Counted from the first letter of the stretch, positions 12 through 46,880 are shown. The stretch is DNA of 50,066 bases from an uncultured Eubacteriales bacterium (GCA_964631135.1 CAZVVZ010000001.1:1-50066); one strand, 5' to 3'. The notes: generated from the letters alone by a model not told the origin. Numbers and translations are program-made.

Positions 12-170
12 ATTAGTTACCAGTCAGACTATATGAAAAAAAGATATATGTTTTATCGGAACTCAGGATTTGCTACGAAAGACTTTAAAAAATACGGGAA
101 GTCTTTCGGCAAATATTCGTTCCTTTTAAAACATATATCTTTTTTTCATATAGTCTGACTGGTAACTAAT
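12..170 (+). repeat. T1 long-hairpin (foldback) repeat, copy A, forward orientation (CTCAGG arm first)
   Basis: Near-perfect 159-bp foldback: attagttaccagtcagactatatgaaaaaaagatatatgtttta ... taaaacatatatctttttttcatatagtctgactggtaactaat. It encloses the conserved T1 core cggaactcaggatttgc..gaaagactt-loop-aagtctttcggcaaatattcgttcc. Confidence 0.9.
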
Positions 171-192
171 ATTTTGTCGTGAATCGACATGA
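167..192 (+). repeat. M3 module, 3' hairpin part only (taatattttgtcgtgaatcgacatga)
   Basis: 26-nt match (24/26) to 46964-46989. The two differences convert a T/T mismatch into a C:G pair in the small hairpin tgtcg(t)gaa(t)cgaca. Confidence 0.6.
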
Positions 193-194
193 TA

Positions 195-224
195 TGGACG
201 AAGTCTATTTTTTTGTGATACAAT
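195..224 (+). promoter_or_regulatory. Candidate sigma-A promoter with extended -10 (tggacg-N18-TGaTACAAT)
   Basis: tgtgatacaat at 214-224 matches the extended -10 TGnTAnAAT. The -35 tggacg is weak. It lies 34 nt upstream of the ATG at 258. Confidence 0.4.
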
Positions 225-257
225 GTTCCTAGGGATAAAAGAAAAGGAGAGGAACAA

Positions 258-1994
258 ATGAAATTTACAAAAGATTCAATAAAAAATATAATTTTCTATT
301 CTGGCTTAATGCTGCTATCCTTTCTAGTTACGACACTAATCATATCGTCCGTAAACTTTTTATTTAAGGGCAGAATTAACTCAATAACGGCTGTAATTTC
401 GATCATTCTATCTATAGCTGTATTCTTCCTGGTAACTTATAAACAGCCTAAAACAGAAGCTATTTTAGGTTTAATTTTAGGCGTGGTTATTTTTGCCGTA
501 TTTATTTTTATAACTCAAAACATTTTAGATTTTGCTCATGACAGCAATTGGTACCATAAAGCAGCTTTAGGGAGTTTAGCTAATGGTTGGAATCCGGTTT
601 ATGAAGAATTTGGGGAATTTGCTAACAATTCAGATTTAAATATAACGGACATGAATTATGCAGCAATATTTACACAGCATTATTGCAAGGCTTCTTGGAT
701 TACAGGGGCTAATATATATTGCTTAACAGGTAATATAGAAACAGGGAAATCAGTTAATTTGTTAATGGCATATATATTGTTTGTGCTTACATTTCATTAT
801 TTGTCGAAGGTATATTTAAAATGGTGGCAGTCATTGATTGTTAGTGGACTTATGGTATACAATCCGCTTACTGTTTCTCAGATTTTCACGTTGTATGTAG
901 ATAATTTATTATATACTTGCTTATTTGGAATTATAGTTATGCTGTTCGGAATTTCGGATAAAAAGTATGATTTGGACGAAAAGATAAAATATTATGTATT
1001 ATTTGGCTTAGTAGTTTTTTGTGTAAATATAAAGTTTACAGGGCTGGCATATGCAGGAGTTTTCTGCTTACTGTTTTATATAATCTGGATTATACATTCT
1101 ATAGTGAATAAGAACTTTAAGCAAGTTTTCATTAAAAACACTGTTTTTTATATAATAACATGCAGCATAGCGATTTTTTTAGTTGGATTTTCTACATATG
1201 TTACAAATTATTTGGACGATGGACATCCCTTATATCCGCTGGCAGGGGAAAATAAGAGAGATATTATGACCGGAAATCAGCCAACAGCATTTAATAAAAT
1301 TAACGGTATAGATCGACTTCTTATTTCTGTATTTTCAAAAACAGAAAATATTACAGGGAAAAAATTACCTGATTTAAAATTTCCGTTTATTGTTTATGAA
1401 GAGGAGGAGGAAATAGTTTCAGTTGGACCGGATACCAGGATTGCAGGTTTTGGCCCACTCTTTGGCGGCATACTATGCTTTTCCGCTGCTATATTAACAT
1501 TTGGAACATACTGCTTATTTAAATTAAATAAATATTGGTTTGCAATTATTATTTCTAATATTGCTGTCATCTTAACGTTGTTACTTTGTATAGAAGAAAG
1601 CTGGTGGGCGAGGTATTCCCCGTATTTTTATTTGATACCTATGCTTGCATTAGTAATTATTTTTATAGCATTTAACAATGAAGTTAAGCTTTTCAAATGC
1701 TTAATAGGAGCGATTTGTGCAGTTTGCATATTTTTACTTGTGAAAAATACAAATTACTTTGTTAAGTATGTTGATAGGTGTATTATAGATTCTAAAACAA
1801 CACTTGAAAATTTAGAAAAAGTCAGAAAAGCATCAGAAGATGGGCCGGTAAAAATTTCATTGATTGTTTCTTCACATTATGGTATTGAATTTAACTTAAA
1901 AGATGCCGATATAAATTACGTTAAAGTTGAGCCGTATACTGTTACTCCGAATAAATTATATGGCGAACTTATGTATGTGGAGGATATAGAGTGA
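258..1994 (+). CDS. Large polytopic integral membrane protein; possible GT-C-type lipid-linked-sugar-dependent glycosyltransferase
   Basis: 578-aa ORF with SD aaaggagagg just upstream of the ATG. Hydrophobic helices run through about residue 500, followed by a soluble tail. The stop overlaps the GTG start of the next gene (GTGA). The functional call rests only on topology and neighbours. Confidence 0.45.
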   Translation: MKFTKDSIKNIIFYSGLMLLSFLVTTLIISSVNFLFKGRINSITAVISIILSIAVFFLVTYKQPKTEAILGLILGVVIFAVFIFITQNILDFAHDSNWYHKAALGSLANGWNPVYEEFGEFANNSDLNITDMNYAAIFTQHYCKASWITGANIYCLTGNIETGKSVNLLMAYILFVLTFHYLSKVYLKWWQSLIVSGLMVYNPLTVSQIFTLYVDNLLYTCLFGIIVMLFGISDKKYDLDEKIKYYVLFGLVVFCVNIKFTGLAYAGVFCLLFYIIWIIHSIVNKNFKQVFIKNTVFYIITCSIAIFLVGFSTYVTNYLDDGHPLYPLAGENKRDIMTGNQPTAFNKINGIDRLLISVFSKTENITGKKLPDLKFPFIVYEEEEEIVSVGPDTRIAGFGPLFGGILCFSAAILTFGTYCLFKLNKYWFAIIISNIAVILTLLLCIEESWWARYSPYFYLIPMLALVIIFIAFNNEVKLFKCLIGAICAVCIFLLVKNTNYFVKYVDRCIIDSKTTLENLEKVRKASEDGPVKISLIVSSHYGIEFNLKDADINYVKVEPYTVTPNKLYGELMYVEDIE

Positions 1995-2854: not shown

Positions 2855-2881
2855 TGTTCTTGATATTGTTTAGAGCTAAAG

Positions 2882-2893: not shown

Positions 2894-2950
2894 GTATTCT
2901 TTATATTAAAACGGTTAAGATAAGTAAAAAACGAGTGGAGAAAACTTTAG

Positions 2951-3895: not shown

Positions 3896-4036
3896 GCAAA
3901 TAAAAAATAGCACAGATGTCATATAGTTTAACGTTGCTCAGAATTCACGGCGGAAACCCTTATCATATGCTATAGGGTGGTTTTCTGTGAATATTCGCAT
4001 CTTTTTAAACTATATGACATCTGTGTTATTTTTTGC
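3896..4036 (+). repeat. T2 long-hairpin repeat, copy 1 (forward); weaker palindromic flanks extend to about 3866-4063
   Basis: atagcacagatgtcatatagtttaacgttgctcagaattcacggcggaaaccc ... gggtggttttctgtgaatattcgcatctttttaaactatatgacatctgtgttat. It is about 90% identical to the reverse complement of 20763-20887. It lies between convergent genes. Confidence 0.85.
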
Positions 4037-5109: not shown

Positions 5110-5300
5110 GTTACTAGTCGGGCTATTAGTGTTTAAACTGTTACTATATGTAAATAAAATATATGTTTTAAAAGGAACGAATATTTGCAGAAAGACTTCC
5201 TCTAATTTTTTTGAAGTCTTTCGTCGCAAATCCTGAGTTCCGATAAAACATATATTTTATTTACATATAGTAACAGTTTAAACACTAACAGTCAGACTAC
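5110..5300 (-). repeat. T1 long-hairpin repeat, copy B, reverse orientation
   Basis: Perfect inverted repeat 5127-5287 (tagtgtttaaactgttactatatgtaaataaaatatatgtttta / reverse complement) around the T1 core in reverse orientation. Degenerate outer termini are gttactagtcgggct (left) and cagtcagactac (right). Confidence 0.9.
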
Positions 5301-5344
5301 CCTTAAAAGTAAAACATATATGTTATTTTCTAGGTAGTCTGACT
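5290..5344. repeat. Internally deleted T1-like mini-hairpin abutting copy B
   Basis: A 12-bp stem agtcagactacc / ggtagtctgact, made of T1 terminal sequence, encloses a 31-nt loop that retains aaaacatatatgtt. Confidence 0.6.
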
Positions 5345-5448
5345 AGCGATTTTTTGAATAATAGCATTATTTTTAATATTGACAATATTAAAAATTTGAG
5401 GTATTGTAATAATTGAATTATAACACTTATATATAGAAGGGATGAAAA

Positions 5449-6176: not shown

Positions 6177-7835
6177 ATGAAAAAGTTTTTATTGGTTTTA
6201 TGTGCAGTTTTAATGATAATATCAACAAGCTTCAGCTTTGCAGAGGAATATGAAGCAGAGTATCCAAAGATAATTTTTGAAAATAAAACAGAAGTTATGA
6301 AAGTAAAGGCAGGAGAAAACTTTGACTTTAAACTTACTATAAAAAATGTGGGCGATGAAGGTGCAAGATACATAACTATTGCAAATGCGGATAAAGAAGC
6401 TCCAATATACTGGGAAACAGCTGTTGATACATATACGATTTATAGGATGAGCGTAGGCGGAAAAAAAGAAATAACCATAAGCTTGAGAGTAAAAGAGACA
6501 GCAGATGTCGGAACATATGCTCTTCCTTTTGATATTACTTATTCAAATTCAAGCGGTACAGAATATTCAAATAAGCAAACAATATATTTTGAAGTTGTTA
6601 AAGAGTATTCAAAGCCTTTAATTTTAGTTAGAAATGTAAAAACAAATCCGGAAGAGGTTACAGCGGATTCTGAAAACAAATTATCTTTTGAAATATATAA
6701 TAACGGCGATTTAGATGCAAGAAGAGTAAAGCTTACATTAAAAGGTTTATCTAAAGACGGATTTATGATAAAAGACTTTATAGATAACAGATATTTTGAC
6801 AATCTTGACGGAAAGGAAAGTAAAAGGGTAAATTTTGACTTATTGGTTTCAGAAAATATTCCGAAAGGCACAAACTCGTTAGATGTTGAATTACAATACT
6901 TTGATCAGGATAATAAAGAATATACAGACACAAAAACAATTTATATAAATAATGTGCAAGGAACTACAAGTGAATCCGGTAAGGGTGTTCCAAAGATAAT
7001 TGTAAGTTCATATGATGTCAGCCCTAGTACAGTTACTGCCGGAAGTACAGTAGCTTTCCAGTTTACATTAAAGAATACACATACTGAAAAATCAATAAAA
7101 AATATGAAGGCTGTAGTTGGCTCGGAGGATGGAACATTTACATTAGAAGGCGGAAGCAACTCATTTTATGTTAGTGAGTTAAAACCGCAAGAAGAAATCA
7201 CAAAGACTTTTTACTTAAGAGCTAAGGCTGATGCTTTATCTCGTGCTTACCCGGTATCTATTGACTTTGATTATGAAGATGCAGATGAGGAAGTGCATAC
7301 TTCTACTGAAAAAATAAATATTCCTGTTGTTGAAAAGACGGAACTTTCTATTGATAATATAAATGGCCCGTATGAGATGTACGTTGGAAATACAGGATAT
7401 ATTTCATTTGAATATTACAATAAGGGAAAAGCAACCATTTCTAATTTATCTGTTACAGTTGAAGGCGACTATTCTTCTGTAAATTCAACTAACTATATTG
7501 GTAACATTGAAGCCGGCAGCGGAAGCTATTCTGAAATAGAGGTAAGAGCGGACGTTGAAGGGCAAGCAAAAGGAACTTTAATATTTTCCTATGAAGATTC
7601 AGTCGGAAATGTAAAAACCTTAGAAAGATCTATAGAAGGACTGGTATATGGTGACGTGCCTGCTTCTGATACGGATTCAGAAATTGATATACCATTTCCG
7701 GAAGAGCAGGAAAAAGAGCATATGGAATGGTGGAAATTGTTACTTATAGGCTTAGGTTCGTTTGCTGTTACTTTGCTTATTGTGAGATTTATTACTATAA
7801 AAGTAATGATGAGAAAGCTAGAAGATGAAATATAA
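6177..7835 (+). CDS. Secreted beta-rich repeat-domain protein with C-terminal membrane anchor (COG1361/CARDB-like by resemblance)
   Basis: 552 aa with a signal peptide MKKFLLVLCAVLMIISTSFSFA. There are about four ~110-aa segments of similar composition (…V..G…F.F.L.N.G…). The C-terminal TM segment WWKLLLIGLGSFAVTLLIV is followed by basic residues. Confidence 0.55.
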   Translation: MKKFLLVLCAVLMIISTSFSFAEEYEAEYPKIIFENKTEVMKVKAGENFDFKLTIKNVGDEGARYITIANADKEAPIYWETAVDTYTIYRMSVGGKKEITISLRVKETADVGTYALPFDITYSNSSGTEYSNKQTIYFEVVKEYSKPLILVRNVKTNPEEVTADSENKLSFEIYNNGDLDARRVKLTLKGLSKDGFMIKDFIDNRYFDNLDGKESKRVNFDLLVSENIPKGTNSLDVELQYFDQDNKEYTDTKTIYINNVQGTTSESGKGVPKIIVSSYDVSPSTVTAGSTVAFQFTLKNTHTEKSIKNMKAVVGSEDGTFTLEGGSNSFYVSELKPQEEITKTFYLRAKADALSRAYPVSIDFDYEDADEEVHTSTEKINIPVVEKTELSIDNINGPYEMYVGNTGYISFEYYNKGKATISNLSVTVEGDYSSVNSTNYIGNIEAGSGSYSEIEVRADVEGQAKGTLIFSYEDSVGNVKTLERSIEGLVYGDVPASDTDSEIDIPFPEEQEKEHMEWWKLLLIGLGSFAVTLLIVRFITIKVMMRKLEDEI

Positions 7836-9327: not shown

Positions 9328-9347
9328 AAAGTTTGCATTATGCTAAA

Positions 9348-9596
9348 TTTTTAATGTAATAGAAAATTTCTACAAAAAAGCGAATAAAACGAGCAATAAA
9401 ATGGGTTATAAAAAGCTCTCCTAAATAGACGTTCAGATTGCTGTAAAAAAGTACTATATATGTTTTATCAGAACTCAGGATTTGCGACGGAAGACTTTAA
9501 AAAAATATGGGAAGTCTTTCGGCAAATATTCGTTCCTTTTAAAACATATATAGTACTTTTTTACAGCTACCAAAAAAGATACCTTAATATTTTGAC
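9348..9596 (+). repeat. M3 repeated module, copy X, interrupted by T1 copy C
   Basis: The 5' part tttttaatgtaatagaaaatttctacaaaaaagcga...gagcaataaaa and the 3' part taccaaaaaagataccttaatattttg match 18548-18621 and 46881-46972. Confidence 0.6.
9440..9567 (+). repeat. T1 long-hairpin repeat, copy C, forward
   Basis: gctgtaaaaaagtactatatatgttttatcagaactcaggatttgcgacggaagactt ... aagtctttcggcaaatattcgttccttttaaaacatatatagtacttttttacagc. This is a 128-bp foldback with copy-specific outer arms. Confidence 0.9.
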
Positions 9597-14786: not shown

Positions 14787-14788
14787 TA

Positions 14789-17234: not shown

Positions 17235-18575
17235 ATGTTTTCTAAAATTTTGGTAGCAAACAGAGGAGAAATTGCCGTTCGTATAATAAGAGCTTGTAAA
17301 GAAATGGGAATCTCTACGGTTGCTGTGTATTCTGAGGCTGACCGTGATTCAATTCATGTAAGTTTAGCTGATGAAAGTATCTGTATAGGTCCGGCTTTTG
17401 CTAAAGACAGTTACCTAAATATGTCAGCTATACTATCTGCCGGTGTTGCGACAGGAGCACAGGCTATTCATCCCGGGTATGGTTTTTTATCTGAAAGCGC
17501 AAAATTTGCAAATTTGTGTGCACAGTGTAGGATGGCTTTTATTGGACCGACTTCTGAGATTATATCTAAAATGGGCGACAAAGACGAAGCAAGAAGGACA
17601 ATAAAGAAAGCAGGAGTACCTGTTATTCCCGGTACGGATATAATAAATGACGTTAAAGAAGGCAAAAAATTAGCAAAGGAAATAGGCTATCCTATTTTAA
17701 TTAAGGCTCGTGCCGGCGGCGGCGGTAAAGGTATTAGGCTTGTTAACAGTGATGCAGAATTTGATAATGCATTTTCAGAGGCGACTACCGAAGCTTCAAA
17801 AGCTTTTGGCGACGGAGCTGTATATATTGAGAAGTATCTTTTTCCGGTAAAGCATATAGAGATGCAGATTTTGGCGGACAGTTTTGGAAATGTTGTTTGT
17901 TTGGGAGAAAGAGACTGCTCAATGCAAAGAAAAAATCAGAAAGTTTTGGAAGAAAGTCCATCAATATTTATAGACGATTCTATTAGAAAAAATATGATAG
18001 AAGCTACTAAAAAAGCAGTAAAAGCTGTTAAATATACTAATGCCGGTACGGTAGAGTTTTTAATGGACAGTGATAAGAACTTTTATTTTATGGAAATGAA
18101 TACAAGACTTCAGGTTGAACATACTGTCACAGAAATGCTTACAGGAATAGATATTGTTAAATGGCAGATTAGAATTGCGGCCGGTATACCGATTGATTTC
18201 AAACAGGAAAAAGTTCAGCTGAAAGGTTCTGCGATAGAGTGCAGAATAAATGCAGAAAATCCGAATAAAGGCTTTACACCAAACTCCGGTAAGGTTACGC
18301 TTTTACATATCCCCGGAGGGCCGAAGGTTCGTTTTGACAGTGCATTATATCAGGATTATACTGTCCCTCCGTTTTACGATTCTATGATTGGAAAACTTAT
18401 TGTTTATGCACCGACACGTGAAGAAAGCATAAGAAAAATGAAAGCGGCATTATGTGAGCTTATAATTGAAGGGCTTGATACTAATATCAATTTCCTTATG
18501 GATATTTTGGATGAAGAAGAGTTTAAAAAAGGGACTTATACAACTAATTTTTTGTGTAATAGAAAATTCCTCTGA
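17235..18575 (+). CDS. accC: Biotin carboxylase
   Basis: 446 aa with KILVANRGEIAVRIIRA, ATP-grasp GGGGKGIR and EMNTRLQVEH. The last ~6 codons and the stop lie inside repeat module M3. Confidence 0.95.
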   Translation: MFSKILVANRGEIAVRIIRACKEMGISTVAVYSEADRDSIHVSLADESICIGPAFAKDSYLNMSAILSAGVATGAQAIHPGYGFLSESAKFANLCAQCRMAFIGPTSEIISKMGDKDEARRTIKKAGVPVIPGTDIINDVKEGKKLAKEIGYPILIKARAGGGGKGIRLVNSDAEFDNAFSEATTEASKAFGDGAVYIEKYLFPVKHIEMQILADSFGNVVCLGERDCSMQRKNQKVLEESPSIFIDDSIRKNMIEATKKAVKAVKYTNAGTVEFLMDSDKNFYFMEMNTRLQVEHTVTEMLTGIDIVKWQIRIAAGIPIDFKQEKVQLKGSAIECRINAENPNKGFTPNSGKVTLLHIPGGPKVRFDSALYQDYTVPPFYDSMIGKLIVYAPTREESIRKMKAALCELIIEGLDTNINFLMDILDEEEFKKGTYTTNFLCNRKFL

Positions 18576-18621
18576 AAAAGCGAGCAATAAAAAAGATTTT
18601 TATTACCAAGAAAGATACCTT
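18548..18621 (+). repeat. M3 repeated module, copy Y (uninterrupted), spanning the accC 3' end and the accC-accD spacer
   Basis: ttttttgtgtaatagaaaattcctctgaaaaagcgagcaataaaaaagatttttattaccaagaaagatacctt aligns block-wise with 9348-9401 plus 9568-9585, and with 46881-46905. Confidence 0.6.
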
Positions 18622-20294: not shown

Positions 20295-20708
20295 ATGAAT
20301 AAAGATGAATTGAAAAAAATTTTACCGCATAGAGAGCCGATGCTACTTGTTGAAGAAGCAGAAAAAATTGATGAAAATAAAGCTATTGGGAAATATAAGG
20401 TAAAAGGTGACGAATGGTTTTTGCAAGGGCATTTCCCGGGAAATCCTGTTGTGCCGGGAGTTGTGCTTTGCGAGATGATGGCACAGGCTTGCTGTGTGAT
20501 ACTTGCAGATAAAGTAAGCGGTGCAACACCGTATTTTACAGGACTTAATAATGTTAAATTTAAAAATAAGGTCTTGCCGGGGGATGAGCTAATTACTGAA
20601 TGTGAGATTACTAAATCTAAACACCCTTTTTACTTTGCCACAGCTAAAGGGAGTGTCAATGGAAAACTTTCGGTTTGTGCGGATTTTTCATTTGCATTGA
20701 TAAAATAA
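20295..20708 (+). CDS. fabZ: 3-hydroxyacyl-ACP dehydratase
   Basis: The start is taken at MNKDEL, 5 nt after aggagg. It carries the hot-dog motif HFPGNPVVPGV. The stop codon lies inside the 12-bp direct repeat flanking T2 copy 2. Confidence 0.9.
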   Translation: MNKDELKKILPHREPMLLVEEAEKIDENKAIGKYKVKGDEWFLQGHFPGNPVVPGVVLCEMMAQACCVILADKVSGATPYFTGLNNVKFKNKVLPGDELITECEITKSKHPFYFATAKGSVNGKLSVCADFSFALIK

Positions 20709-20713
20709 AGTCT

Positions 20714-20936
20714 CTATTCAGGGAAAAAGGGGTTGAAAAAAACTCTTCCCTAAATAATAAAACATAGCACAGAGCTCATATAGTTTAAAAGATGCGAATA
20801 TTCACAGGAAACCATCCTATAGCATAGGATAAGAGGTTTCCGTCGTGAATCCTGAGCAACGTTAAACTATATGAGCTCTGTGCTATGTTTTATTATTTAG
20901 GGAAGAGTTTTTTTCAACCCCTTTTTCCCTGAATAG
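20714..20936 (-). repeat. T2 long-hairpin repeat, copy 2 (reverse), a 223-bp foldback flanked by a 12-bp direct repeat; possible MITE insertion
   Basis: ctattcagggaaaaaggggttgaaaaaaactcttccctaaataataaaacatagcacagagctcatatagtttaa ... and its reverse complement form the arms. gataaaataaag occurs at 20699-20710 and again at 20938-20949. Confidence 0.85.
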
Positions 20937-20962
20937 GGATAAAATAAAGATTTAGTTTATAT

Positions 20963-22135
20963 TTACTCATCTTCACTATCCAATAACATTTTTGACTCAA
21001 CTTCAGCTAAACTTGTTACAGAGCTTAGTTTTCTTTGAATTTGTCTTGTTCTGACACCTACGAGTTTATCTAAGTTATCATTTGCTTGTTCCAATCGCTT
21101 TTGCGTATCGCTTAAAACTGTAGCAAAATTATCAAATTCTGTTTTTACTGCACCCAGTACTTTCCAAACTTCACTTGAACGTTTTTGAATTGCTAAAGTT
21201 TTAAATCCCATTTGCAAGCTATTTAGTAATGCAGCCATTGTTGTAGGACCTGCAATTACAATTTTATACTTTTCCTGTAATTCTTCGATAAGACCCTGTC
21301 TTACCACTTCTGCATATAAACCTTCAAATGGTAGAAACATTATTCCAAAATCTGTTGTATAAGGTGGGTAAATGTATTTTTCTTTTATCTCCTTAGCACA
21401 TAATTTTATCATTCTAATGAGTTCTTTTACACATGTATCTATTTTTTCTTGGCTTCCGTTATCATATGCTTCAAGTAAATTTGAGTATGCATCTCCCGGG
21501 AACTTAGAATCTATAGGGAGATAAACAACTCCATCTTCATCGCCCGGTAATTTTACTGCAAATTCTACCACATTAGTAGATTTTGGCTTTGTTGCAATAT
21601 CAGTTTCATACTGTTCGGGTGATAAAATCTGCTCTAAAATAGCACCAAGCTGAATTTCGCCTAAAATACCGCGAGATTTTACATTTGTTAAGACTTTTTT
21701 TAAGTCTCCTACACCTGTTGCTAAATTTTGCATTTCTCCAAGCCCTTTATATACCTGCTCTAATCGCTCACTTACCAACTTAAATGATTGCGAAATTTTG
21801 TTTTCTAAAGTTTTTTGCAATTTCTCATCTACAGTGTTTTTCATCTCATCTAATTTTTTATTATTATTTTCTTGCATCTGATTTACTTTTGTATCTATTT
21901 GAATTAGCATATCATTTACCGTTCTTTGAAGGGTGTTATTTCGTTCTGTAAGCTGGTCGTTAAGCTCTGAGAGACGCTTATCCTGCATACTGGATAAATC
22001 AGAAAGCCTTCTGTCTTGCAATTCGGCGGTTTGCTTTTGTGTAGAATTTAACATATCACCTAAAAATTTTATCGCGATAAGCACAACGATTATTATTAAG
22101 ATTGTGGCAATCGCAACTCCTATGTATATTTCCAT
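20963..22135 (-). CDS. rmuC: DNA recombination protein RmuC
   Basis: 390 aa. An N-terminal TM helix is followed by a long coiled-coil and then a nuclease-like C-terminal domain (FGIMFLPFEGLYAEV, VIAGPTT), matching RmuC family architecture. Confidence 0.8.
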   Translation of the reverse strand: MEIYIGVAIATILIIIVVLIAIKFLGDMLNSTQKQTAELQDRRLSDLSSMQDKRLSELNDQLTERNNTLQRTVNDMLIQIDTKVNQMQENNNKKLDEMKNTVDEKLQKTLENKISQSFKLVSERLEQVYKGLGEMQNLATGVGDLKKVLTNVKSRGILGEIQLGAILEQILSPEQYETDIATKPKSTNVVEFAVKLPGDEDGVVYLPIDSKFPGDAYSNLLEAYDNGSQEKIDTCVKELIRMIKLCAKEIKEKYIYPPYTTDFGIMFLPFEGLYAEVVRQGLIEELQEKYKIVIAGPTTMAALLNSLQMGFKTLAIQKRSSEVWKVLGAVKTEFDNFATVLSDTQKRLEQANDNLDKLVGVRTRQIQRKLSSVTSLAEVESKMLLDSEDE

Positions 22136-22849: not shown

Positions 22850-22911
22850 AATATAAACACCTCTGTTATTTTTTTATACTTAGAAATTCAAAAATATATT
22901 GAATAATAAAC

Positions 22912-23068
22912 GTTATTCTTCAGGCTTATATATGAAAATAATATATATGTTTTACCGGAACTCAGGATTTACAACGAAAGACTTTAAAAAATATAGGAAG
23001 TCTTTCTGCAAATATTCGTTCCTTTTAAAACATATATATTGTTTTCATGTAATAGTCTGAATAGTAAC
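22912..23068 (+). repeat. T1 long-hairpin repeat, copy D, forward (more degenerate arms)
   Basis: gttattcttcaggcttatatatgaaaataatatatatgttttaccggaactcaggatttacaacgaaagactt ... aagtctttctgcaaatattcgttccttttaaaacatatatattgttttcatgtaatagtctgaatagtaac. Confidence 0.85.
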
Positions 23069-23161
23069 TTATAAACATAAAAACTTCAGCTTTTACATTT
23101 ACTCTTTAATCATAAATATGATACAATATTGGTGCAAAGTTGTAAAGGAGATGAATAAGAT

Positions 23162-32538: not shown

Positions 32539-32572
32539 TCCTTTCTACAAACATTCGTTCAAACATATATAC

Positions 32573-32585
32573 TCTGACCAGTAAC
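32573..32585 (-). repeat. Solo T1 terminus fragment next to copy E
   Basis: tctgaccagtaac resembles the right terminus tctgactggtaac of copy A (11/13). It lies 12 nt outside the left end of copy E. Confidence 0.35.
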
Positions 32586-32597
32586 CGAAGATGACAC

Positions 32598-32750
32598 TGT
32601 TCAGACTGCGACTATATGAAAATAATATATATGTTTTAAAAGGAACGAATATTTGCCGAAAGACTTCCCGTATTTTTTAAAGTCTTTCGTCGCAAATCCT
32701 GAGTTCCGATAAAACATATATATTATTTTCATATAGCAGCAGTCTGAACA
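32598..32750 (-). repeat. T1 long-hairpin repeat, copy E, reverse
   Basis: tgttcagactgcgactatatgaaaataatatatatgttttaaaaggaacgaatatttgccgaaagactt ... aagtctttcgtcgcaaatcctgagttccgataaaacatatatattattttcatatagcagcagtctgaaca. Confidence 0.9.
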
Positions 32751-32785
32751 AGTACCACGAAGACTACCTTTTTATTTGATATATA

Positions 32786-36142: not shown

Positions 36143-36161
36143 TCTACAGCAATGCATTCGA

Positions 36162-36304
36162 GTTGCTATTCAGACTACTAAATAATATATATGTTTTATC
36201 GGAACTCAGGATTTGCGACGAAAGACTTTAAAAAATACGAGAAGTTTTTCGGCAAATATTCGTTCCTTTTAAAACATATATATTATTTTCATATAATAGT
36301 AGCA
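36162..36304 (+). repeat. T1 long-hairpin repeat, copy F, forward, with eroded termini
   Basis: gttgctattcagactactaaataatatatatgttttatcggaactcaggatttgcgacgaaagactt ... aagtttttcggcaaatattcgttccttttaaaacatatatattattttcatataatagtagca. It is bracketed by cattcga at 36155-36161 and 36305-36311. Confidence 0.85.
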
Positions 36305-36398
36305 CATTCGATATTATGTTACAAAAATTTAATATAAAATGTCGTAAAAATATGATAAAATAATAGTCGGAAAGATTTTTTGCTGTGAGGAATTATAT

Positions 36399-40402: not shown

Positions 40403-40617
40403 ATACTGTGAACGGATAGAGTATCCAAACTCGAATTCCGGAAAGCATAATAATCAAGGAAGATTTCAGTGTTCACGGACGAATACTTATGAAAAGAGAC
40501 CTAAAAATAAAGGGTTTATTCTCTTTGTTTTTAAGTATCTCAATTTCCGGAATTCTGAGCGAGATGCAGTATCTGTTTTTTGTTTTAAAAAAATTAAAAC
40601 AGAAAGGAGGGAGAGTG

Positions 40618-41763
40618 ATGCGAATCAATACAAATGTAATGGCCTTAAATGCACAAAATATGCTGTCTAAGAACCAAAATGATGTGGAAAAATCAATTCA
40701 GAAATTATCTTCAGGTCTTAAGATAAACGGAGCTTCAGACGATGCTTCAGGACTTGCGATAAGTGAAAAGATGAGAGCACAGATAAAAGGATTGAATCAA
40801 GCTCAATCCAATGCACAAGACGGCATATCGTTATTACAAACTGCAGAAGGTGCTTTACAGCAATCTACCGATATTCTTCAAAGGATGCGAGAGCTTGTTA
40901 TTAAGGCGCAAAACACAGGCGTATTGACGGATGAAGACAGAACGTCTATTAGTAACGAACTTAGTACACTTCGTGATGAAATTGACAGAATTTCAACATC
41001 TACAACATTCAACGGCAAGAAACTTTTAACCGGTGACATGGGAACAAAAGTGGCTACTAATAGCCTCACTAATGCAGTAGCAGTAGATGCTTCAAATGCA
41101 AAAGAGGGGATAGAGTATACATTTTCCTATGACTCTACTAAGGAAAAAATAAAAGTTTCTTGGACAGATGACGGTGTAGCAAAAACTGATTATTCAGACA
41201 AGACATATGTTTCTGATACAGATACGGTGTCAGGTCAAGTTAATTTTTCAGGAGCAGGAATAAGTATCGATTACGGTGAGACGGGTGTTACAGTAACAAA
41301 TGCTATTGCCGGTACTAAAGTAGCAACGGCAGATGTAGCAAGTGGGCAAAGAGCGGAATTTAAGATTGGCGCTAATACTTATACACAAGACGTAATGTTT
41401 GTTGGTATAAGTGACATGAGTTCGAAGGGACTAAATAAAACAGATAAAACTGAAAAATTCTCTATCGATATCAGTACAGCACAAAAAGCGAATGAAGCTT
41501 TAAGTGCAATAGATTATGCACTAAATAAAGTTTCAGAGCAAAGATCAAGCTTAGGTACCGTTCAAAACAGGATGGAATATTCCAGTAATAATCTATCCAC
41601 AACGGAAGAAAATTTAACAGCTGCCGAGTCAAGAATCAGGGATGTTGACATGGCAGAAGAAATGGTAACATACACCAAAAACAGTATTCTAAATGAGTCT
41701 GCTATGGCGATGTTATCTCAGGCAAATAAACAGCCTGAAAAAATTCTTACTTTATTACAGTAA
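40618..41763 (+). CDS. fliC: Flagellin paralog 1
   Basis: The start is taken at MRINTNVMALNAQN, 7 nt after aaaggaggg. It has conserved D0/D1 N- and C-termini (…SRIRDVDMAEEMV.YTK.SIL…LLQ) and a divergent centre. Confidence 0.92.
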   Translation: MRINTNVMALNAQNMLSKNQNDVEKSIQKLSSGLKINGASDDASGLAISEKMRAQIKGLNQAQSNAQDGISLLQTAEGALQQSTDILQRMRELVIKAQNTGVLTDEDRTSISNELSTLRDEIDRISTSTTFNGKKLLTGDMGTKVATNSLTNAVAVDASNAKEGIEYTFSYDSTKEKIKVSWTDDGVAKTDYSDKTYVSDTDTVSGQVNFSGAGISIDYGETGVTVTNAIAGTKVATADVASGQRAEFKIGANTYTQDVMFVGISDMSSKGLNKTDKTEKFSIDISTAQKANEALSAIDYALNKVSEQRSSLGTVQNRMEYSSNNLSTTEENLTAAESRIRDVDMAEEMVTYTKNSILNESAMAMLSQANKQPEKILTLLQ

Positions 41764-41836
41764 GAGTAGACTTAAGTTAATATGTAATGAAAGTCACGGA
41801 TGAAAAAAATAATTAAAATTCAGGGAGGAATTTATT

Positions 41837-42979
41837 ATGAGAATTAATACTAATGTTATGGCGTTAAACGCACAAAACAAATTAACAAAAAACCAATCAA
41901 GTGTAGAAAAGTCAATCCAAAGATTGTCTTCAGGTTTAAGAATCAACAGTGCAGCTGATGATGCTGCAGGACTTGCAATCAGTGAAAAAATGCGTGCACA
42001 AATCAGAGGTCTTGGTCAAGCTCAAGACAATGCACAGGACGGTATTTCCTTAATTCAAACAGCAGAGGGTGCTTTACAACAAACAACAGACATTCTTCAG
42101 AGAATGAGAGAGCTTGTTATTAAAGCCCAAAACACAGGTGTATTAACAGATAACGATAGAACATCTATCTCAAGCGAGTTAAGTACACTACGTGATGAAA
42201 TTGACAGAATTGCTACTTCTACAACATTTAACAGTAAAAAACTATTAAATGGTGAATTAGGAAATGAAATGGAATCTGCTAATATTGGCTCATATGCAAG
42301 AATAGATGTAGCTAATGCTGATTCAAGCACGGAATATACGATTGCAAATACTGTAGATTCAAACGGAAGATTACAAATGACATGGACTGATGAAGCAGGT
42401 AGTACACATACAGCAGTGTCAGATATATCTTTTGGTAGTGGTGCAACTGCTGTTGCAGGAAGGGTTAACTTTGCTGATGCAGGAATAATTGTAGATTTCG
42501 GCGACGATGATGTAGCATTAGCAAGTGCAGCCGGAACAATTACAACATCTGCTGCTCAGAAAAGAGCAGACTTTAAGATTGGTGCAAACACATATGAAGA
42601 AGACGTTTTATCGTGCGGCATTAGTGATATGTCCTCAACTGGATTAAACAGAGATATGAAAGCTAATGAAAAGTTCGGAATAGACATAAGCACAGCTGAT
42701 TTAGCTAATGAAACATTAGATAATTTGGACTATGCTTTAGAGACAGTTGCATCACAGAGATCCACTCTTGGTGTTATGCAGAACAGAATGGAATATGCGG
42801 TAAGCAACTTATCTACAACCGAAGAAAACTTAACATCTGCTGAATCTCGTATCCGTGACGTAGATATGGCTGAAGAAATGGTAAGCTATACAAAGGATAG
42901 CATATTAAATCAATCTGCTATGGCGATGTTAGCACAAGCAAATCAACAGCCACAAGCGATCCTTTCATTACTTCAATAA
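41837..42979 (+). CDS. fliC: Flagellin paralog 2
   Basis: 380 aa, MRINTNVMALNAQNKL..., with SD cagggagga. Confidence 0.93.
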   Translation: MRINTNVMALNAQNKLTKNQSSVEKSIQRLSSGLRINSAADDAAGLAISEKMRAQIRGLGQAQDNAQDGISLIQTAEGALQQTTDILQRMRELVIKAQNTGVLTDNDRTSISSELSTLRDEIDRIATSTTFNSKKLLNGELGNEMESANIGSYARIDVANADSSTEYTIANTVDSNGRLQMTWTDEAGSTHTAVSDISFGSGATAVAGRVNFADAGIIVDFGDDDVALASAAGTITTSAAQKRADFKIGANTYEEDVLSCGISDMSSTGLNRDMKANEKFGIDISTADLANETLDNLDYALETVASQRSTLGVMQNRMEYAVSNLSTTEENLTSAESRIRDVDMAEEMVSYTKDSILNQSAMAMLAQANQQPQAILSLLQ

Positions 42980-42999
42980 CGGAGAAGTAATGTTCTCCG
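42980..42999 (+). terminator. Weak hairpin after flagellin 2 (cggagaa-gtaatg-ttctccg), no clean U-tract
   Basis: A 7-bp stem directly after the stop codon. The downstream sequence gaattgaagttttt has only a distal T-run. Confidence 0.3.
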
Positions 43000-43050
43000 G
43001 AATTGAAGTTTTTCAAGGATGAGAAATTTCAAATTCAAGGAGGAATTATT

Positions 43051-44169
43051 ATGAGAATTAATACAAACGTAATGGCATTAAATGCCCAAAATAAGTTATC
43101 AGCAAATGAAAGTAGTGTAGAAAAATCAATTCAAAGATTATCTTCAGGTTTAAGAATTAACAGTGCAGCAGACGATGCATCAGGCTTAGCAATAAGTGAA
43201 AAGATGCGTGCTCAGATCAGAGGCTTAGATCAAGCCCAATCTAATGCACAAGACGGTATATCGTTATTACAAACAGCTGAAGGTGCTTTACAACAAACAA
43301 CAGACATTCTTCAAAGAATGAGAGAGCTTGTTATTAAAGCTCAGAACACAGGTGTGTTAACAGACAACGATAGAACATCTATCTCAAACGAACTTAGCAC
43401 ACTACAGGATGAAATCGACAGAATTGCTACATCTACTACATTTAACGGAAAGAAATTGTTAGATGGCAGTATGTCAACAAAGCTTGATGCTGGCTCAACC
43501 ATTACTGGGCTTAAAAATGTTGATGTTGCATCTGCTGATGCAGGAAAAACATTTACCTTAGCAGCAACTTTTGACAACAATAGATTAAAAATAACTGATG
43601 AAGATGGTAATGTATCATATTCAGATGTAACATTTACAAATACAAAATCTATTAGCGGTAAAGTAACATTTGCAGATATCGGAGTTTCTATAGACTTTGG
43701 TGATGAAGATGTTGAACTTGCAACAAAGACAATAAAAACAGCAGCAGTTACAAACAGAGCTGACTTCAAGATTGGTGCTAATACATTTGATGAGGACGTT
43801 TTATCAGCCGGTATCGGAGATATGTCCGCTGTAGGACTAAATAGAAATATGGGTACTGAAAAATTCTCAATTGATATTAGTAGTGCTACAACAGCAAATG
43901 ATACGTTAGATGCGATTGACTATGCACTTGATAAAGTATCTGCTCAAAGATCTAATCTTGGTGTTATCCAAAACAGAATGGAATATGCAGTAAGCAACTT
44001 ATCTACAACCGAAGAAAACTTAACAGCTGCTGAATCTCGTATCAGAGATGTAGATATGGCTGAAGAGATGGTATCTTATACAAAGAACTCTATCTTAAAT
44101 CAATCTGCTATGTCAATGTTAGCTCAGGCAAATCAACAACCACAAACAATCTTGTCATTACTACAATAG
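43051..44169 (+). CDS. fliC: Flagellin paralog 3
   Basis: The start is taken at MRINTNVMALNAQNKLSANE after caaggagga. Conserved termini, unique central region. Confidence 0.93.
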   Translation: MRINTNVMALNAQNKLSANESSVEKSIQRLSSGLRINSAADDASGLAISEKMRAQIRGLDQAQSNAQDGISLLQTAEGALQQTTDILQRMRELVIKAQNTGVLTDNDRTSISNELSTLQDEIDRIATSTTFNGKKLLDGSMSTKLDAGSTITGLKNVDVASADAGKTFTLAATFDNNRLKITDEDGNVSYSDVTFTNTKSISGKVTFADIGVSIDFGDEDVELATKTIKTAAVTNRADFKIGANTFDEDVLSAGIGDMSAVGLNRNMGTEKFSIDISSATTANDTLDAIDYALDKVSAQRSNLGVIQNRMEYAVSNLSTTEENLTAAESRIRDVDMAEEMVSYTKNSILNQSAMSMLAQANQQPQTILSLLQ

Positions 44170-44300
44170 AAAAGGATAAGTGGTCTTTAATATAAAAATA
44201 ATTGGCACTGAATATTAAAGACAATATCTAAGATACATATAAATTTAAGTGTGTTCTTAAATTATACGGCGAAAAAAATAAGAAAATACAAAAAATAAGT

Positions 44301-44327
44301 TAAGTAAATAATTGGTTTAGACGATAC
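44301..44327 (+). promoter_or_regulatory. Candidate sigma-D promoter for flagellin 4: TAAG-N17-CGATAC
   Basis: taag at 44301 and cgatac at 44322, about 95 nt upstream of the ATG. Confidence 0.4.
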
Positions 44328-44420
44328 TCTAAACAGCCGAGAGACTCTTTGCACTGGCAAGGAGTTTTTGGCGTTGACACAAGGAAGATGTCAATACAAA
44401 GAATTCAAGGAGGAATTTAT

Positions 44421-45560
44421 ATGAGAATCAACACTAACCTAATGGCGCTTAATGCGCAGAACAAATTGCGAGTAAATCAGTCAAACGTAGAAAAATCAAT
44501 CCAGAAGTTATCTTCAGGAATGAGAATCAACAGTGCTGCTGATGATGCTGCGGGATTAGCGATTAGTGAGAAGATGCGTGCTCAAATCCGAGGTCTAAAG
44601 CAAGCTCAGGATAATGCGCAAGATGGTATCTCATTAATCCAAACCGCAGAAGGTGCATTGCAGCAAACGACTGACATTTTACAAAGAATGAGGGAGCTTG
44701 TAATAAAGGCGCAAAACACCGGTGTATTGACAGACAACGATAGAACATCTATTACGAGTGAGCTTAGTACACTACGTGATGAAATTGATAGAATAGCGAC
44801 TTCAACGACCTTTAACTCAAAGAAATTGTTAGATGGTGAACTTGCAGTTCAAAGGGCAGAAAATGGTGGCACATTTGATGCCGGTATAGTGGATGTTGTA
44901 AATGCGAATACAGGTACAACGTATACGATAACTGCTAAAGAAGGAGAACGTGCATACGTTAGTTTTACTGATCCGGAAACCGGTAATACGATAAGTTATG
45001 TATCCGATATAGTGATGACAAAAACAGTTACCGGAAAAATAAACTTTTCTGATGCGGGAATTATAGTTAATTTCTGGAGAAATGAAGTATCACTGGAAAG
45101 TCTGAACGGTAAAACGATAGTAACAGCTGATGATTCCTTCGGTATTAAGGCAGATTTTAAGATTGGAGCCAACACATATTCCGAAGACATTTTAGCAATA
45201 GGAATAGGCGATATGTCATCGATAGGACTGAATGTTAAAAATGATGGGGCAAAATTTTCAATAGATATTTCTACTGCGAGCTCTGCCAACGATGTCCTAG
45301 ATGCTGTTGATTTCGCCTTGGATGCGGTAGCTTCTCAGAGAGGAACACTTGGAGCTATACAAAATCGAATGGAATATGCGATAAGTAATTTAAGTGCTAC
45401 CGAAGAAAACTTGAGTGCAGCCGAATCACGTATCCGTGATGTCGACATGTCTGCAGAGATGGTTAAGTACACAAAGAATAACATACTAAATCAATCTGCT
45501 ATGGCGATGTTGGCACAGGCAAATCAACAGCCTCAACAAGTCTTGACTTTATTACAATAA
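44421..45560 (+). CDS. fliC: Flagellin paralog 4 (visibly more G/C-ending codons in the conserved N-terminal part)
   Basis: The start is taken at MRINTNLMALNAQNKL after caaggagga. Conserved termini. Confidence 0.93.
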   Translation: MRINTNLMALNAQNKLRVNQSNVEKSIQKLSSGMRINSAADDAAGLAISEKMRAQIRGLKQAQDNAQDGISLIQTAEGALQQTTDILQRMRELVIKAQNTGVLTDNDRTSITSELSTLRDEIDRIATSTTFNSKKLLDGELAVQRAENGGTFDAGIVDVVNANTGTTYTITAKEGERAYVSFTDPETGNTISYVSDIVMTKTVTGKINFSDAGIIVNFWRNEVSLESLNGKTIVTADDSFGIKADFKIGANTYSEDILAIGIGDMSSIGLNVKNDGAKFSIDISTASSANDVLDAVDFALDAVASQRGTLGAIQNRMEYAISNLSATEENLSAAESRIRDVDMSAEMVKYTKNNILNQSAMAMLAQANQQPQQVLTLLQ

Positions 45561-45569
45561 TTAAAGTAA

Positions 45570-45598
45570 TCCCGAGAGAAATCTCGGGAATTTTTTTT
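45570..45598 (+). terminator. Rho-independent terminator of the flagellin array
   Basis: tcccgagagaaatctcggga followed by atttttttt. Confidence 0.85.
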
Positions 45599-45672
45599 GC
45601 CTTTTACTTTTATTTGGGAAAAAAATACGATAATATATACATAGGAAAAACTAAAAACAAAGGAGAACGACT

Positions 45673-46683
45673 ATGGAAGATTTAAAAACAAAAGAAAATA
45701 ACATAAAAAAAGCGAAAAGAAAAATAATGCTTATTTCTGTGGTGTTAACACTTATTATTGTACTAGCAACAGTAATAGTAATATTTTCTTTAAATAAATC
45801 CGGCAATAATAGTTACACTGTCCCCAATTCATATAAATTTTCCGGGAATATTTTAAGTACGGCTTCGGTTTCTTCGGAGATATCGCTGGTAATAGAAGAA
45901 AAGGACAATTTATTATACGGTATTACACTTAAAAATAATGAACTTGTTTCGCAAAAAGTTCTAAGTAATAATATAGACTATAGTGAAATAACTGACTTTG
46001 GAGTAGTATTATCAGAATATAATAACGACAAAAATAAAGATTTTACATACATTTATGATAAATCAGATAATGGGTACATATATAAATTTTATAGTATTGA
46101 TAGTGCAGGAAACATAGCTGATTTAGAAATAGAGAATACAACGGTAGATTCTAAAATGGCTTCTTTAAAGTTTACAAAGTCCGGTGACAAATTTGAATAT
46201 GTAGTACCTATTTTTTATTATGACGGATATAAAGTTTCTGCCGAAATCGGAGAACATAAATTAACGGAAAAAGCAAATGTAAGCAAAAAGACAATATCAA
46301 AGACCAGTAAAATAGCTATTGAAGGAAAGTATAATGCAATTCCCAGAAAATATACGGTTGGAAATGAAATATCAGAATATATCCAGAACGTAAATACATA
46401 CTTAATCGATATATCGAAAAAACAGTGCATTGAAGTTGATTTAGACGGCAATAATGAAAAAGAATATATAATCAGTACCATAAACGATAAAAAAACAAGT
46501 GTAGCTTTATTTGACAGTTCAGCTAATCTTGTAAGTAACATATTAGAAATAATCGGGGAGAAAGAAATAAGCAATATTATTGAGATTGCAGATATAGACA
46601 ATGATGGAATTATGGAAATTATAGCTGTAAAAGATAGTGACACTGTAGAAGTTCATAAGTATAATAACGGATTTTATTATTAA
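45673..46683 (+). CDS. Hypothetical N-terminally anchored extracytoplasmic protein with FG-GAP/VCBS-like Asp-rich motifs
   Basis: 336 aa with SD aaaggaga and a TM helix IMLISVVLTLIIVLATVIVIF. Calcium-binding-like motifs are DLDGNNEKEYI and DIDNDGIMEIIAV. Confidence 0.6.
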   Translation: MEDLKTKENNIKKAKRKIMLISVVLTLIIVLATVIVIFSLNKSGNNSYTVPNSYKFSGNILSTASVSSEISLVIEEKDNLLYGITLKNNELVSQKVLSNNIDYSEITDFGVVLSEYNNDKNKDFTYIYDKSDNGYIYKFYSIDSAGNIADLEIENTTVDSKMASLKFTKSGDKFEYVVPIFYYDGYKVSAEIGEHKLTEKANVSKKTISKTSKIAIEGKYNAIPRKYTVGNEISEYIQNVNTYLIDISKKQCIEVDLDGNNEKEYIISTINDKKTSVALFDSSANLVSNILEIIGEKEISNIIEIADIDNDGIMEIIAVKDSDTVEVHKYNNGFYY

Positions 46684-46710
46684 AAGAGTACGTTAAACAA
46701 AATATAAAAA

Positions 46711-46880
46711 ATTGGTTACTAGTCAGACTGCTGCTATGCGAAAATAATATATATGTTTTATCGGAACTCAGGATTTGCGACGAAAGGCTTTAAAAATACT
46801 GGAAGCCTTTCGGCAAATATTCGTTCCTTTTAAAACATATATATTATTTTCGCATAGTAGCAGTCTGACTAGTAACCAAT
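46711..46880 (+). repeat. T1 long-hairpin repeat, copy G, forward (near-perfect 170-bp foldback)
   Basis: attggttactagtcagactgctgctatgcgaaaataatatatatgttttatcggaactcaggatttgcgacgaaaggctt ... aagcctttcggcaaatattcgttccttttaaaacatatatattattttcgcatagtagcagtctgactagtaaccaat. Confidence 0.9.

Follow-up and report, generated by a model that had tools for sequence, protein, structure and literature searches.

Several families of bacterial repeats are, like the elements described here, small (<400 bp), non-coding, intergenic and present in many copies, among them Correia/NEMIS (Neisseria), ERIC (enterobacteria), RUP (Streptococcus pneumoniae) and Chunjie (Geobacter). Bacterial MITEs are usually <200 bp and up to ~400 bp long and form very stable stem-loops, as the folding energies of Chunjie also indicate, and the centre of Correia elements holds an IHF site (that is, a protein-binding site) (PMC3184786). 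In REPINs, the ends (16-mers and REP hairpins) are conserved around a variable spacer with compensatory changes, and a single-copy RAYT presumably moves them in trans (PMC3116915). Template switching between the arms of inverted repeats leads to arm homogenisation, spacer inversion and arm expansion, as described in PMC8604942 and PMC13100816; it turns imperfect bacterial repeats into perfect ones, and it is well accepted that inverted repeats evolve in concert through recombination or template switching (PMC5941160). The same homogenisation, spacer inversion and outward growth of arms are outcomes reported for quasi-palindrome correction and palindrome gene conversion (plastid inverted repeats and sex chromosomes; PMC8604942, PMC13100816, PMC8327919 and PMC5941160). 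Those general mutational processes act on unique loci, whereas the elements reported here form a whole mobile family with several outcomes in one strain population. In Clostridioides difficile, recombinase-driven invertible switches between inverted repeats (for example, the flagellar switch and RecV-dependent loci) are well known; these are unique loci with ~21-bp inverted repeats, ~150–300-bp inserts, reciprocal RecV flipping and a known regulatory read-out.

Here we analyse a stretch of 50,066 nucleotides (the window) from an uncultured spore-forming Clostridia bacterium, whose T1 repeats we assign to a previously undescribed family of short, mobile, hairpin-forming DNA elements. Compared with the hairpin MITEs above, T1 and its sister subfamily XY have no sequence similarity to anything in the collections searched, are conserved between subfamilies at the centre rather than at the termini, have near-perfect arms that are far longer, at up to 92 nt, and undergo documented strain-to-strain inversion of the centre and conversion of the arms. 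Like REPINs, they are abundant intergenic non-autonomous hairpins with two-sided compensatory changes and presumed mobilisation in trans, but their centre is conserved and their arms vary, they are AT-rich and flanked by direct repeats, and no RAYT was seen in the DNA inspected. As with the C. difficile switches, a Clostridia segment between inverted repeats occurs in both orientations; however, T1/XY comprises many near-identical copies with 41–92-nt arms, a 71-nt centre and a non-reciprocal outcome, with no recombinase nearby and no promoter evidence in the window. Taken with the evidence below, we consider it likely that T1, XY and the subfamilies of related genomes constitute a lineage-restricted, non-autonomous foldback MITE-like family whose arm covariation stems from concerted evolution at the DNA level.

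A 28-nt core probe, with up to 3 mismatches allowed, matched the window exactly seven times against 0 expected from 100 shuffles (58–85(+), 5214–5241(−), 9470–9497(+), 22957–22984(+), 32680–32707(−), 36201–36228(+) and 46763–46790(+)). Together with the palindrome extents, these matches substantiate the seven copies of the original prediction, each of which indeed folds into one long imperfect hairpin (−47 to −111 kcal/mol). Copy A (+; palindrome 10–172, element proper ~16–166), located by core match and palindrome, has perfect 46-nt arms with the ends GTTACC...GGTAAC around an asymmetric 71-nt centre. Copy B (−; 5110–5299, palindrome 5115–5299) has 56-nt arms that are 95% complementary, and copy G (+; 46707–46884) 54-nt arms that are 98% complementary; copy D (+; 22912–23068, palindrome 22907–23073) is older, with arms 81% complementary. 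Copy C (+; 9432–9575) is delimited by core match and palindrome, copy E (−; 32592–32757, palindrome 32598–32750) by core match and direct repeats, and copy F (+; 36162–36304) combines decayed arms with an exact direct repeat. Across the family, elements measure 117–229 bp, with arms of 20–92 nt that are 81–100% complementary, a G+C content of 26–41% (that is, AT-rich) and no internal ORF of ≥80 aa; 11 of them lie within ~62.6 kb of one contig. The conserved centre (~95 nt) is a slightly asymmetric quasi-palindrome. It contains fixed internal loops (CTCAGGATT facing AATATTCG) and, near GACG, a 2-nt bulge, is capped by an apical loop, and is flanked on both sides by the long inverted-repeat arms.

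The window also holds two copies of XY, overlooked in the original prediction. Copy X (3902–4034, +; 94 bits) carries the T1 internal-loop motifs on different stems and shares 85% identity across 151 nt with a copy in the MAG of another species (L013), and copy Y (20711–20939, −) forms a palindrome of 229 bp, its 92-nt arms being 99% complementary. The internal-loop motifs are common to X, Y and T1, and the asymmetric loops CTCAGGATT / AATATTCG are kept in at least four subfamilies despite largely unrelated outer arms and termini. Compared across subfamilies, the internal loops vary less than the stems. A core-proximal arm motif, TAT-R-K-TTTA, is likewise conserved in all subfamilies. Within T1, the outer arms had been thought specific to each copy, but most are not: A, B, D, E, F and G share the end consensus GTTACTAGTCAGACTG (10 matches versus 0.27 expected). 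In C, a mid-arm segment was swapped in concert on both arms (GCTGTAAAAAAGTAC / GTACTTTTTTACAGC).

Fragments had been noted besides the full copies, and we located three solo ends and one centre-less remnant. The solo ends are T1-end-like 16-mers that match the end consensus: 2878–2893 (−), a probable remnant; 32570–32585 (−), directly left of E; and 49959–49974 (+), upstream of dnaG, which is missing at the orthologous place in the sister species L041. The centre-less T1 remnant (5289–5347, no strand assigned) adjoins B and retains the outer-arm motifs AGTCAGACTACC / GGTAGTCTGACT, with a 33-nt piece containing TAAAACATATAT between them. This remnant resembles the deleted F allele of other samples.

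The family appears narrowly distributed. Nowhere in the window did an Rfam covariance model match, either at the gathering score or at E ≤ 1, in keeping with the earlier impression that the element belongs to no named family, and no matches were obtained in plasmid and phage collections, viral contigs or JGI metagenomes. The motif was found in only 1 of 185,579 species-representative genomes, as five loci of one MAG; the other 12 genome matches were read as chance because they lack a hairpin fold and lie mostly in G+C-rich loci. Relatives at 92% RpoD identity had no elements in ~80 kb.

All copies are intergenic, as originally predicted: B, D and E lie at divergent junctions, C and F at co-directional ones and G at a convergent one. 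Copies are spaced 1–13 kb apart between housekeeping operons (for example, fab, relA and rpoD-dnaG). Equally in line with the prediction, no mobility gene lies nearby: the Pfam tables, which cover ~62 kb of the source contig, contain neither a transposase nor an integrase or other recombinase, no transposase is linked to the elements in this contig or in ~33 kb of MAG loci, and the ~95 kb inspected holds neither a RAYT gene nor an autonomous insertion sequence that shares its ends with the elements. Integron attC sites, which are imperfect hairpins between promoterless cassettes arrayed beside intI, were considered and rejected, given the spacing of the copies between housekeeping operons and the lack of an integrase among the genes inspected.

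Evidence for mobility comes from contigs of sister strains (99.3–99.97% identical) and of the sister species L041, among which presence/absence polymorphism was found for Y and H, and the centre of F is also polymorphic. Y is present in three samples and missing from L031, where the empty site reads GATAAAATAAAG joined directly to ATTTAG; the filled site has an exact 11-bp target-site duplication (flank test, P = 0.003), with the left copy ATAAAATAAAG at 20700–20710 and the right copy at 20939–20949, the first base of which is also the element end. H is present in L018 and L020 and missing from L019 and L041, with an 8/8 direct repeat at the filled site; its insertion brought an extra, non-palindromic 42 bp, and because a hyper-divergent tract adjoins it, H may have been imported by recombination. 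As for F, L039 and L040 lack its central 111 bp, and ATAATA microhomology marks the junction. Conversely, L041 carries an element at a place where only 20 bp separate the genes in the window species, and a different subfamily at the site orthologous to that of G. Further direct repeats flank F (CATTCGA, 7/7; 36155–36161 and 36305–36311), E (CGAAGA, 6/6; 32586–32591 and 32758–32763) and D (TAATAAAC at 22904–22911 and TTATAAAC at 23069–23076, 7/8), and the 8-mers flanking A (8–15 and 167–174) match at 6/8 positions. Such repeats, 6–11 bp long, are clear in only ~5 copies (Y, F, E, D and H), and at G and the MAG copies M03 and M13 they are absent or inverted. Taken singly, most do not reach significance in the flank test, given the AT-rich DNA.

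The co-variation between arms that drew attention to T1 is real. Double changes affect 20 of 67 pairs among the seven copies; among 14 cores, 98.5% of cells pair, 15 pairs show double changes and the covariation score is 0.453, compared with 0.189 when shuffled (reached in 0/500) and 0.05–0.12 when slid. The double change described for the apical stem of G also exists (GGCTT/AAGCC, against GACTT/AAGTC in other copies). Covariation and polymorphism are therefore both present in this family, and the covariation here does not separate selection on RNA from homogenisation of arms in DNA. A DNA-level cause for the concerted arm evolution was, in turn, seen directly, as inverted centres and converted arms between untouched flanks. 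In L022, copy A has identical flanks but a 71-nt centre that matches the reverse complement of the window's exactly (0 mismatches), and the centres of E and Y are inverted in L030. In L030, the left arm of E has also changed from GCGAC to GCTGC and is now the perfect complement of the unchanged right arm, an intermediate allele (GCTAC) being found in L031, and Y has lost a 4-nt asymmetry and changed at one position on both arms. The palindrome of G continues past the T1 end for 8 nt (AAAAATTG / CAATTTTT), with flanks that are inverted rather than direct; its orientation is identical in L018 and L019. Inversions aside, the elements vary little among strains (in L023, element and non-element rates are both ~0.16%). 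As one arm has been copied onto the other at the DNA level, we interpret the arm co-variation as concerted DNA evolution and not as a sign of a selected RNA fold.

The alternative that best withstands these data, albeit an improbable one, is that T1 encodes a selected structured RNA (a cis-acting hairpin, for example a bidirectional terminator, mRNA stabiliser or protein-binding RNA) with compensatory stems and functional loops, spread as a mobile or duplicated module. The strong covariation and the greater conservation of internal loops than of stems would suit such an RNA, as would two strand-related features. First, the forward strand is predicted to form more G-U pairs (41 versus 17) and is lower in folding energy for 13 of 16 copies, which is compatible with some strand-specific single-strand function. 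Second, the 5′ arm carries an A-run and the 3′ arm a T-run in all subfamilies, so that a U-run would follow the hairpin whichever strand is transcribed. Against this, a simple terminator scan did not call the elements, Rfam gave no match, and all three junction types are occupied; the core flips relative to neighbouring genes between strains that are 99.3–99.7% identical, sister strains lose whole elements or their centre, and orthologous sites in the sister species are empty or hold other subfamilies. Moreover, 16 of the 41 arm mismatches are of transversion type, and the remainder (17 G-T versus 8 A-C) reveal a weak bias and no clear G-U strand preference. Thus, where the original prediction offered either a foldback MITE or a selected structured element, the former is supported by polymorphism, 6–11-bp repeats and shared ends, and RNA selection is neither required nor supported.

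We regard as quite unlikely a second alternative, in which the elements are single-stranded DNA hairpins of the REP/REPIN or IS200/IS605 type and a RAYT-like HUH tyrosine transposase, encoded once elsewhere, recognises the imperfect bulged hairpin. The long hairpin with conserved asymmetric bulges and loops, the freely varying arms and the high copy density would fit, and REPIN spacers also show compensatory changes (PMC3116915). Nevertheless, T1 has no paired GC-rich REP hairpins and no invariant terminal 16-mers, its conserved and variable parts are the reverse of those in REPINs, and the DNA inspected holds no RAYT-like gene. The flanking direct repeats also speak against this origin, given that insertion of the IS200/IS605 type is not known to make any.

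It is very unlikely that the elements are multi-copy invertons, in which a dedicated recombinase would flip the core and its orientation would control neighbouring genes, even though the centres of three elements (A, E and Y) are inverted precisely between inverted repeats, the TAT-R-K-TTTA motif is kept throughout and C. difficile provides a precedent. The inversion of E is non-reciprocal, with only one arm changed, rather than the reciprocal exchange expected of such a switch, and all inversions are confined to one strain, the most divergent, pointing to an evolutionary rate rather than that of phase variation. In addition, the neighbourhood holds no recombinase gene, the window shows no enrichment of promoter-like sites (58 versus 52.8 expected; those within elements, in A, B and X, are weak matches of 9–10/12), some copies lie between convergent genes, and a 71-bp segment would be very short for synapsis. 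Finally, it is extremely unlikely that metagenome assembly created the inversions and arm changes artificially at palindromes and that the repeats are inert relics: although all three inverted centres come from one MEGAHIT contig and many short contigs end within elements, orientation should be resolvable because the 41–92-nt arms are shorter than the final k of 141, ~27 other locus-by-assembly observations concur with the window orientation, additional substitutions, a conversion and an indel accompany the inversions in the E and Y alleles, and indels in Y, F and H are independent of orientation.

The foldback MITE-like reading agrees with what MITEs generally are: the elements are small, contain no transposase gene, end in terminal inverted repeats and are dispersed as polymorphic copies, with target-site duplications of variable length (none at G, M03 and M13). 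In the scenario that we favour, an element would insert into AT-rich intergenic DNA, giving rise to 6–11-bp direct repeats (as shown for some copies), through a hypothetical mobilising enzyme presumably supplied in trans from elsewhere in the genome. Template switching at replication, or recombination between the close inverted repeats, would then copy one arm onto the other; given the non-reciprocal outcome in E, template switching may be the better candidate. Such interaction at the DNA level would keep the arms of a copy complementary, and the same interaction would invert the centre and may extend the palindrome into the flank or delete the centre. Strain comparisons show arm homogenisation, centre inversion, flank extension and centre deletion after insertion.

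In one respect these elements differ from an ordinary MITE, namely that conservation is reversed: the centre is kept over at least four subfamilies, whose outer arms and termini are largely unrelated. We suggest that the asymmetric loops probably provide a site that mobilisation requires in cis, perhaps a candidate protein-binding site comparable to the IHF site at the centre of Correia elements. A bolder and rather doubtful extension is that the conserved centre, not the termini, is the cis determinant of mobility, with the enzyme cutting wherever the base-pairing of the hairpin or cruciform ends; a weaker variant holds that the flipping core would act as an orientation switch at many loci. 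Recognition of the core would account for a single core being common to at least four subfamilies with unrelated, near-perfect arms of 20–92 nt, and for the duplication at Y bordering the whole 229-bp palindrome. If true, anything that is paired to the core, including arms that template switching has grown into the flank, would move as part of the element.

The seven copies of T1 (the hairpin repeat family, copies A–G) were matched by a 28-nt core probe with up to three mismatches, which found no match in 100 shuffles, and by a repeat finder that returned the same seven loci with arms complementary over 41–56 nt and spaced by 71–73 nt; both bear out the positions read from the sequence in the original prediction. 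Each copy is predicted to fold as a single long imperfect hairpin (−47 to −111 kcal/mol), as had been proposed, and the double change claimed for the apical stem of copy G and the intergenic placement at convergent, divergent and co-directional junctions likewise held. Two further elements had been overlooked, X (3902–4034) and Y (20711–20939, a 229-bp palindrome with 92-nt arms that are 99% complementary); these form a sister subfamily (XY) that has internal-loop motifs in common with T1 and stems that are unlike those of T1, with the differences compensated.

The surrounding DNA is chromosomal and derives from a spore-forming Clostridia bacterium (~33% G+C) whose nearest cultured relatives share ~76% RpoD identity (Acetivibrio/Hungateiclostridium and Petroclostridium); the gene content includes the fab operon, relA, rpoD–dnaG, ylbJ, spoIID and four flagellin genes. 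The flagellin genes are tandem paralogues (40489–45560; DNA identity of 64–78% in the regions compared), and their lengths vary by strain (403 and 388 aa in the window; 379 and 375 or 372 aa in the sister strains L018 and L019). The longest of the palindromes, Y, sits just downstream of an rmuC homologue (Pfam RmuC; 20963–22135). RmuC of E. coli reportedly limits inversions at short inverted repeats; the adjacency is probably a coincidence.

An alignment of 14 cores yielded a consensus hairpin of 34 pairs (that is, a basal helix, a 3-bp helix and a 17-bp apical helix) in which 98.5% of cells are paired and double changes occur in 15 pairs. Covariation scored 0.453, compared with 0.189 for shuffled alignments (0/500) and 0.05–0.12 when partners were slid. 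The arm co-variation noted in the original prediction is real, and copying between DNA arms, which can be seen between strains, is its best explanation.

Exact-protein look-ups led to sister-strain contigs in several assemblies from ENA and Logan (99.3–99.97% identity to the window), and these were scanned with a covariance model derived from the cores. The contig ERZ27279226 k141_45166 differs from the window and the other strains in that its A, E and Y cores are on the opposite strand; those of B, C, D, G and X have the same orientation in all strains compared. The inverted A allele has a 71-nt centre that is the exact reverse complement, set between 55 and 74 identical flanking bases. For E, the arms in the window are mismatched (GCGAC on the left, GCAGC on the right), the left arm of the inverted allele reads GCTGC, a perfect complement of the unaltered right arm, and the allele of a third strain carries GCTAC. 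Given that only one E arm was altered, whereas a reciprocal crossover swaps both arms or neither, the event was non-reciprocal. In the inverted Y allele, a 4-nt asymmetry has gone, which leaves a perfect 14-bp apical stem, and one position is altered on both arms.

Growth and deletion were also observed. The palindrome of G extends 8 nt beyond the T1 end, with flanks that are inverted and not direct (AAAAATTG / CAATTTTT). In two samples, F has lost its central 111 bp, and the remaining stubs of the outer arms meet at an ATAATA microhomology; a centre-less remnant similar to this deleted allele adjoins B, and solo T1 ends occur at three places in the window. Inversions aside, the elements diverge little between strains (in the sister strain L023, element and non-element rates are both ~0.16%). 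Template switching between the arms of inverted repeats has been reported to homogenise the arms, invert the spacer and expand the arms (PMC8604942, PMC13100816), and in bacteria imperfect repeats are corrected to perfect ones, with concerted evolution of inverted repeats attributed to recombination or template switching (PMC5941160). The arm co-variation is best explained by such concerted evolution of DNA arms.

A selected structured RNA, one of the two readings originally offered, is not needed to explain the co-variation, though the elements may have some RNA role (for example, as a terminator or stabiliser). The forward strand does carry more predicted G–U pairs (41 versus 17) and usually the lower folding energy; much of this bias is inherited from the shared core. 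Arm mismatches (17 G–T, 8 A–C and 16 of transversion type) show no clear G–U strand bias, and core flipping weakens the whole comparison. Against the RNA reading stand the orientation of the core relative to neighbouring genes, which flips between strains, and element sites that differ between species, with losses that lack visible compensation; the elements were also uncalled by a terminator scan, and Rfam 15 gave no match at the gathering score or at E ≤ 1. An outward promoter with its −35 box (TTTAAA) at the core edge was dropped, as it matches at only 9 of 12 positions and promoter-like sites are not enriched in the window. An encoded peptide was rejected on the basis of the XY subfamily, which lacks the ATG that initiates a frame in T1 cores, and analogies to attC, retrons, oriT/sso and bridge RNAs failed on context, since the copies form no array and genes for a reverse transcriptase, relaxase or recombinase are lacking nearby.

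The other reading, a foldback MITE, is supported by presence/absence differences between strains and species and by flanking direct repeats. Comparison of sister strains showed that the Y and H sites are filled or empty depending on the strain. Y is missing from one strain, in which the empty site reads GATAAAATAAAG followed immediately by ATTTAG; at the filled site, ATAAAATAAAG flanks the 229-bp palindrome on both sides (P = 0.003, flank test). H, an additional T1-like copy, is present in two samples and missing from a third and from a sister species (96% RpoD identity); its filled site carries an 8-bp repeat, it was inserted with an extra non-palindromic 42 bp, and a hyper-divergent tract adjoins, so that H may itself have been imported by recombination. 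That tract (L018 7780–7880 compared with L019, just beyond the window end and upstream of dnaG) spans ~80 bp in a small ORF of two strains that are otherwise >99.6% identical, and is probably an imported recombination tract. In the same sister species, the G site holds another subfamily, and an element lies at a place where the genes of the window species are only 20 bp apart; relatives at 92% RpoD identity had no elements in ~80 kb. Exact direct repeats directly flank F (CATTCGA) and E (CGAAGA), with a 7/8 match at D. In an automated symmetric test for target-site duplications, Y alone was clearly significant and H, D and M12 (a copy in a MAG) were marginal; the E and F repeats are asymmetrically placed, were missed by this test, and were spotted by eye and then located.

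The elements match bacterial MITEs as defined in PMC3184786, save for a partner insertion sequence, which would carry GTTACTAGTCAGAC or the core at its ends. Among the genes listed for the ~62.6-kb contig that carries 11 elements there is no transposase or integrase, and ORFs near the MAG copies look ordinary, as judged by eye only.

The TAATAGGRAAAT motif was rejected as part of the element, being a separate small repeat beside some copies only. A small intergenic repeat distinct from the hairpin family (roughly AATTTTTWRTGTAATAGRAAATTYCT...AAAAAGCGA) occurs in the window at 9346–9400 (just upstream of C), 18546–18600 and 46879–46915 (just right of G), within the 42-bp extra segment of H (L018, about 7725–7760) and to the right of M12 (L012 4916–4929); its AGGAAAT part resembles a SigH-type −35 box.

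The pattern of conservation differs from that of an ordinary MITE, where constraint falls on the termini: in this family it is the asymmetric centre that is kept, in at least four subfamilies from three species, and the outer arms vary freely. Fixed asymmetries separate the core helices (TC versus TTT at the base, UCAGGA versus UAUUC, a 2-nt bulge at GCGACG and the apical loop), with internal loops CTCAGGATT / AATATTCG. After two sister-species subfamilies were added, CTCAGGATT, ACG, AATATTC and TTTTAAA remained nearly invariant and the stems and outer arms varied. Most T1 copies have a common end (GTTACTAGTCAGACTG) and are alike in their arms up to it; past ~12 nt from the core, the arms have little in common from one subfamily to another. 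Because copying between arms would be expected to remove asymmetries, selection probably maintains the loops, and we infer that the centre is a putative cis-acting site for the mobilising machinery, much like the IHF site in the middle of Correia elements. Mobilisation might possibly be directed by structure, such that all that is paired to the core moves along with it. A decayed T1-like copy, Z, situated ~4.1 kb before the window begins (L022 455–571; only 53 bits with the core model), has AATAGAAGC in place of the 5′ loop CTCAGGATT and retains the 3′ half.

The original prediction recognised no named family, and the searches gave none: beyond the Rfam result, a full copy gave no blastn match in plasmid and phage collections, and a degenerate motif over both conserved loops gave none in viral contigs or JGI metagenomes. 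A scan of 185,579 GTDB species-representative genomes gave 17 matches, with the hairpin in five loci of a single MAG ('uncultured Eubacteriales bacterium binchicken_co323_74'); the other 12, which lack a hairpin fold and mostly lie in G+C-rich loci, were read as chance. The family thus appears to be undescribed and lineage-restricted.

At 11 elements in about 62.6 kb of one contig, the density is ~1 per 6 kb, which, if extrapolated genome-wide, would amount to a few percent of the host genome. Assemblies of the host are repeatedly interrupted within or at the edge of elements (many short contigs: L020, L024–L029 and L033–L037), and the repeats cap the contiguity of metagenome-assembled genomes from this organism. 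For RNA discovery the family carries a caution: well-supported covariation in a repeated hairpin is usually taken as evidence of a functional RNA, and in these near-identical strains the same pattern is made by DNA-level arm copying, alongside palindrome inversion, growth and deletion. The family is a natural example of palindrome dynamics at many loci inside one strain population.
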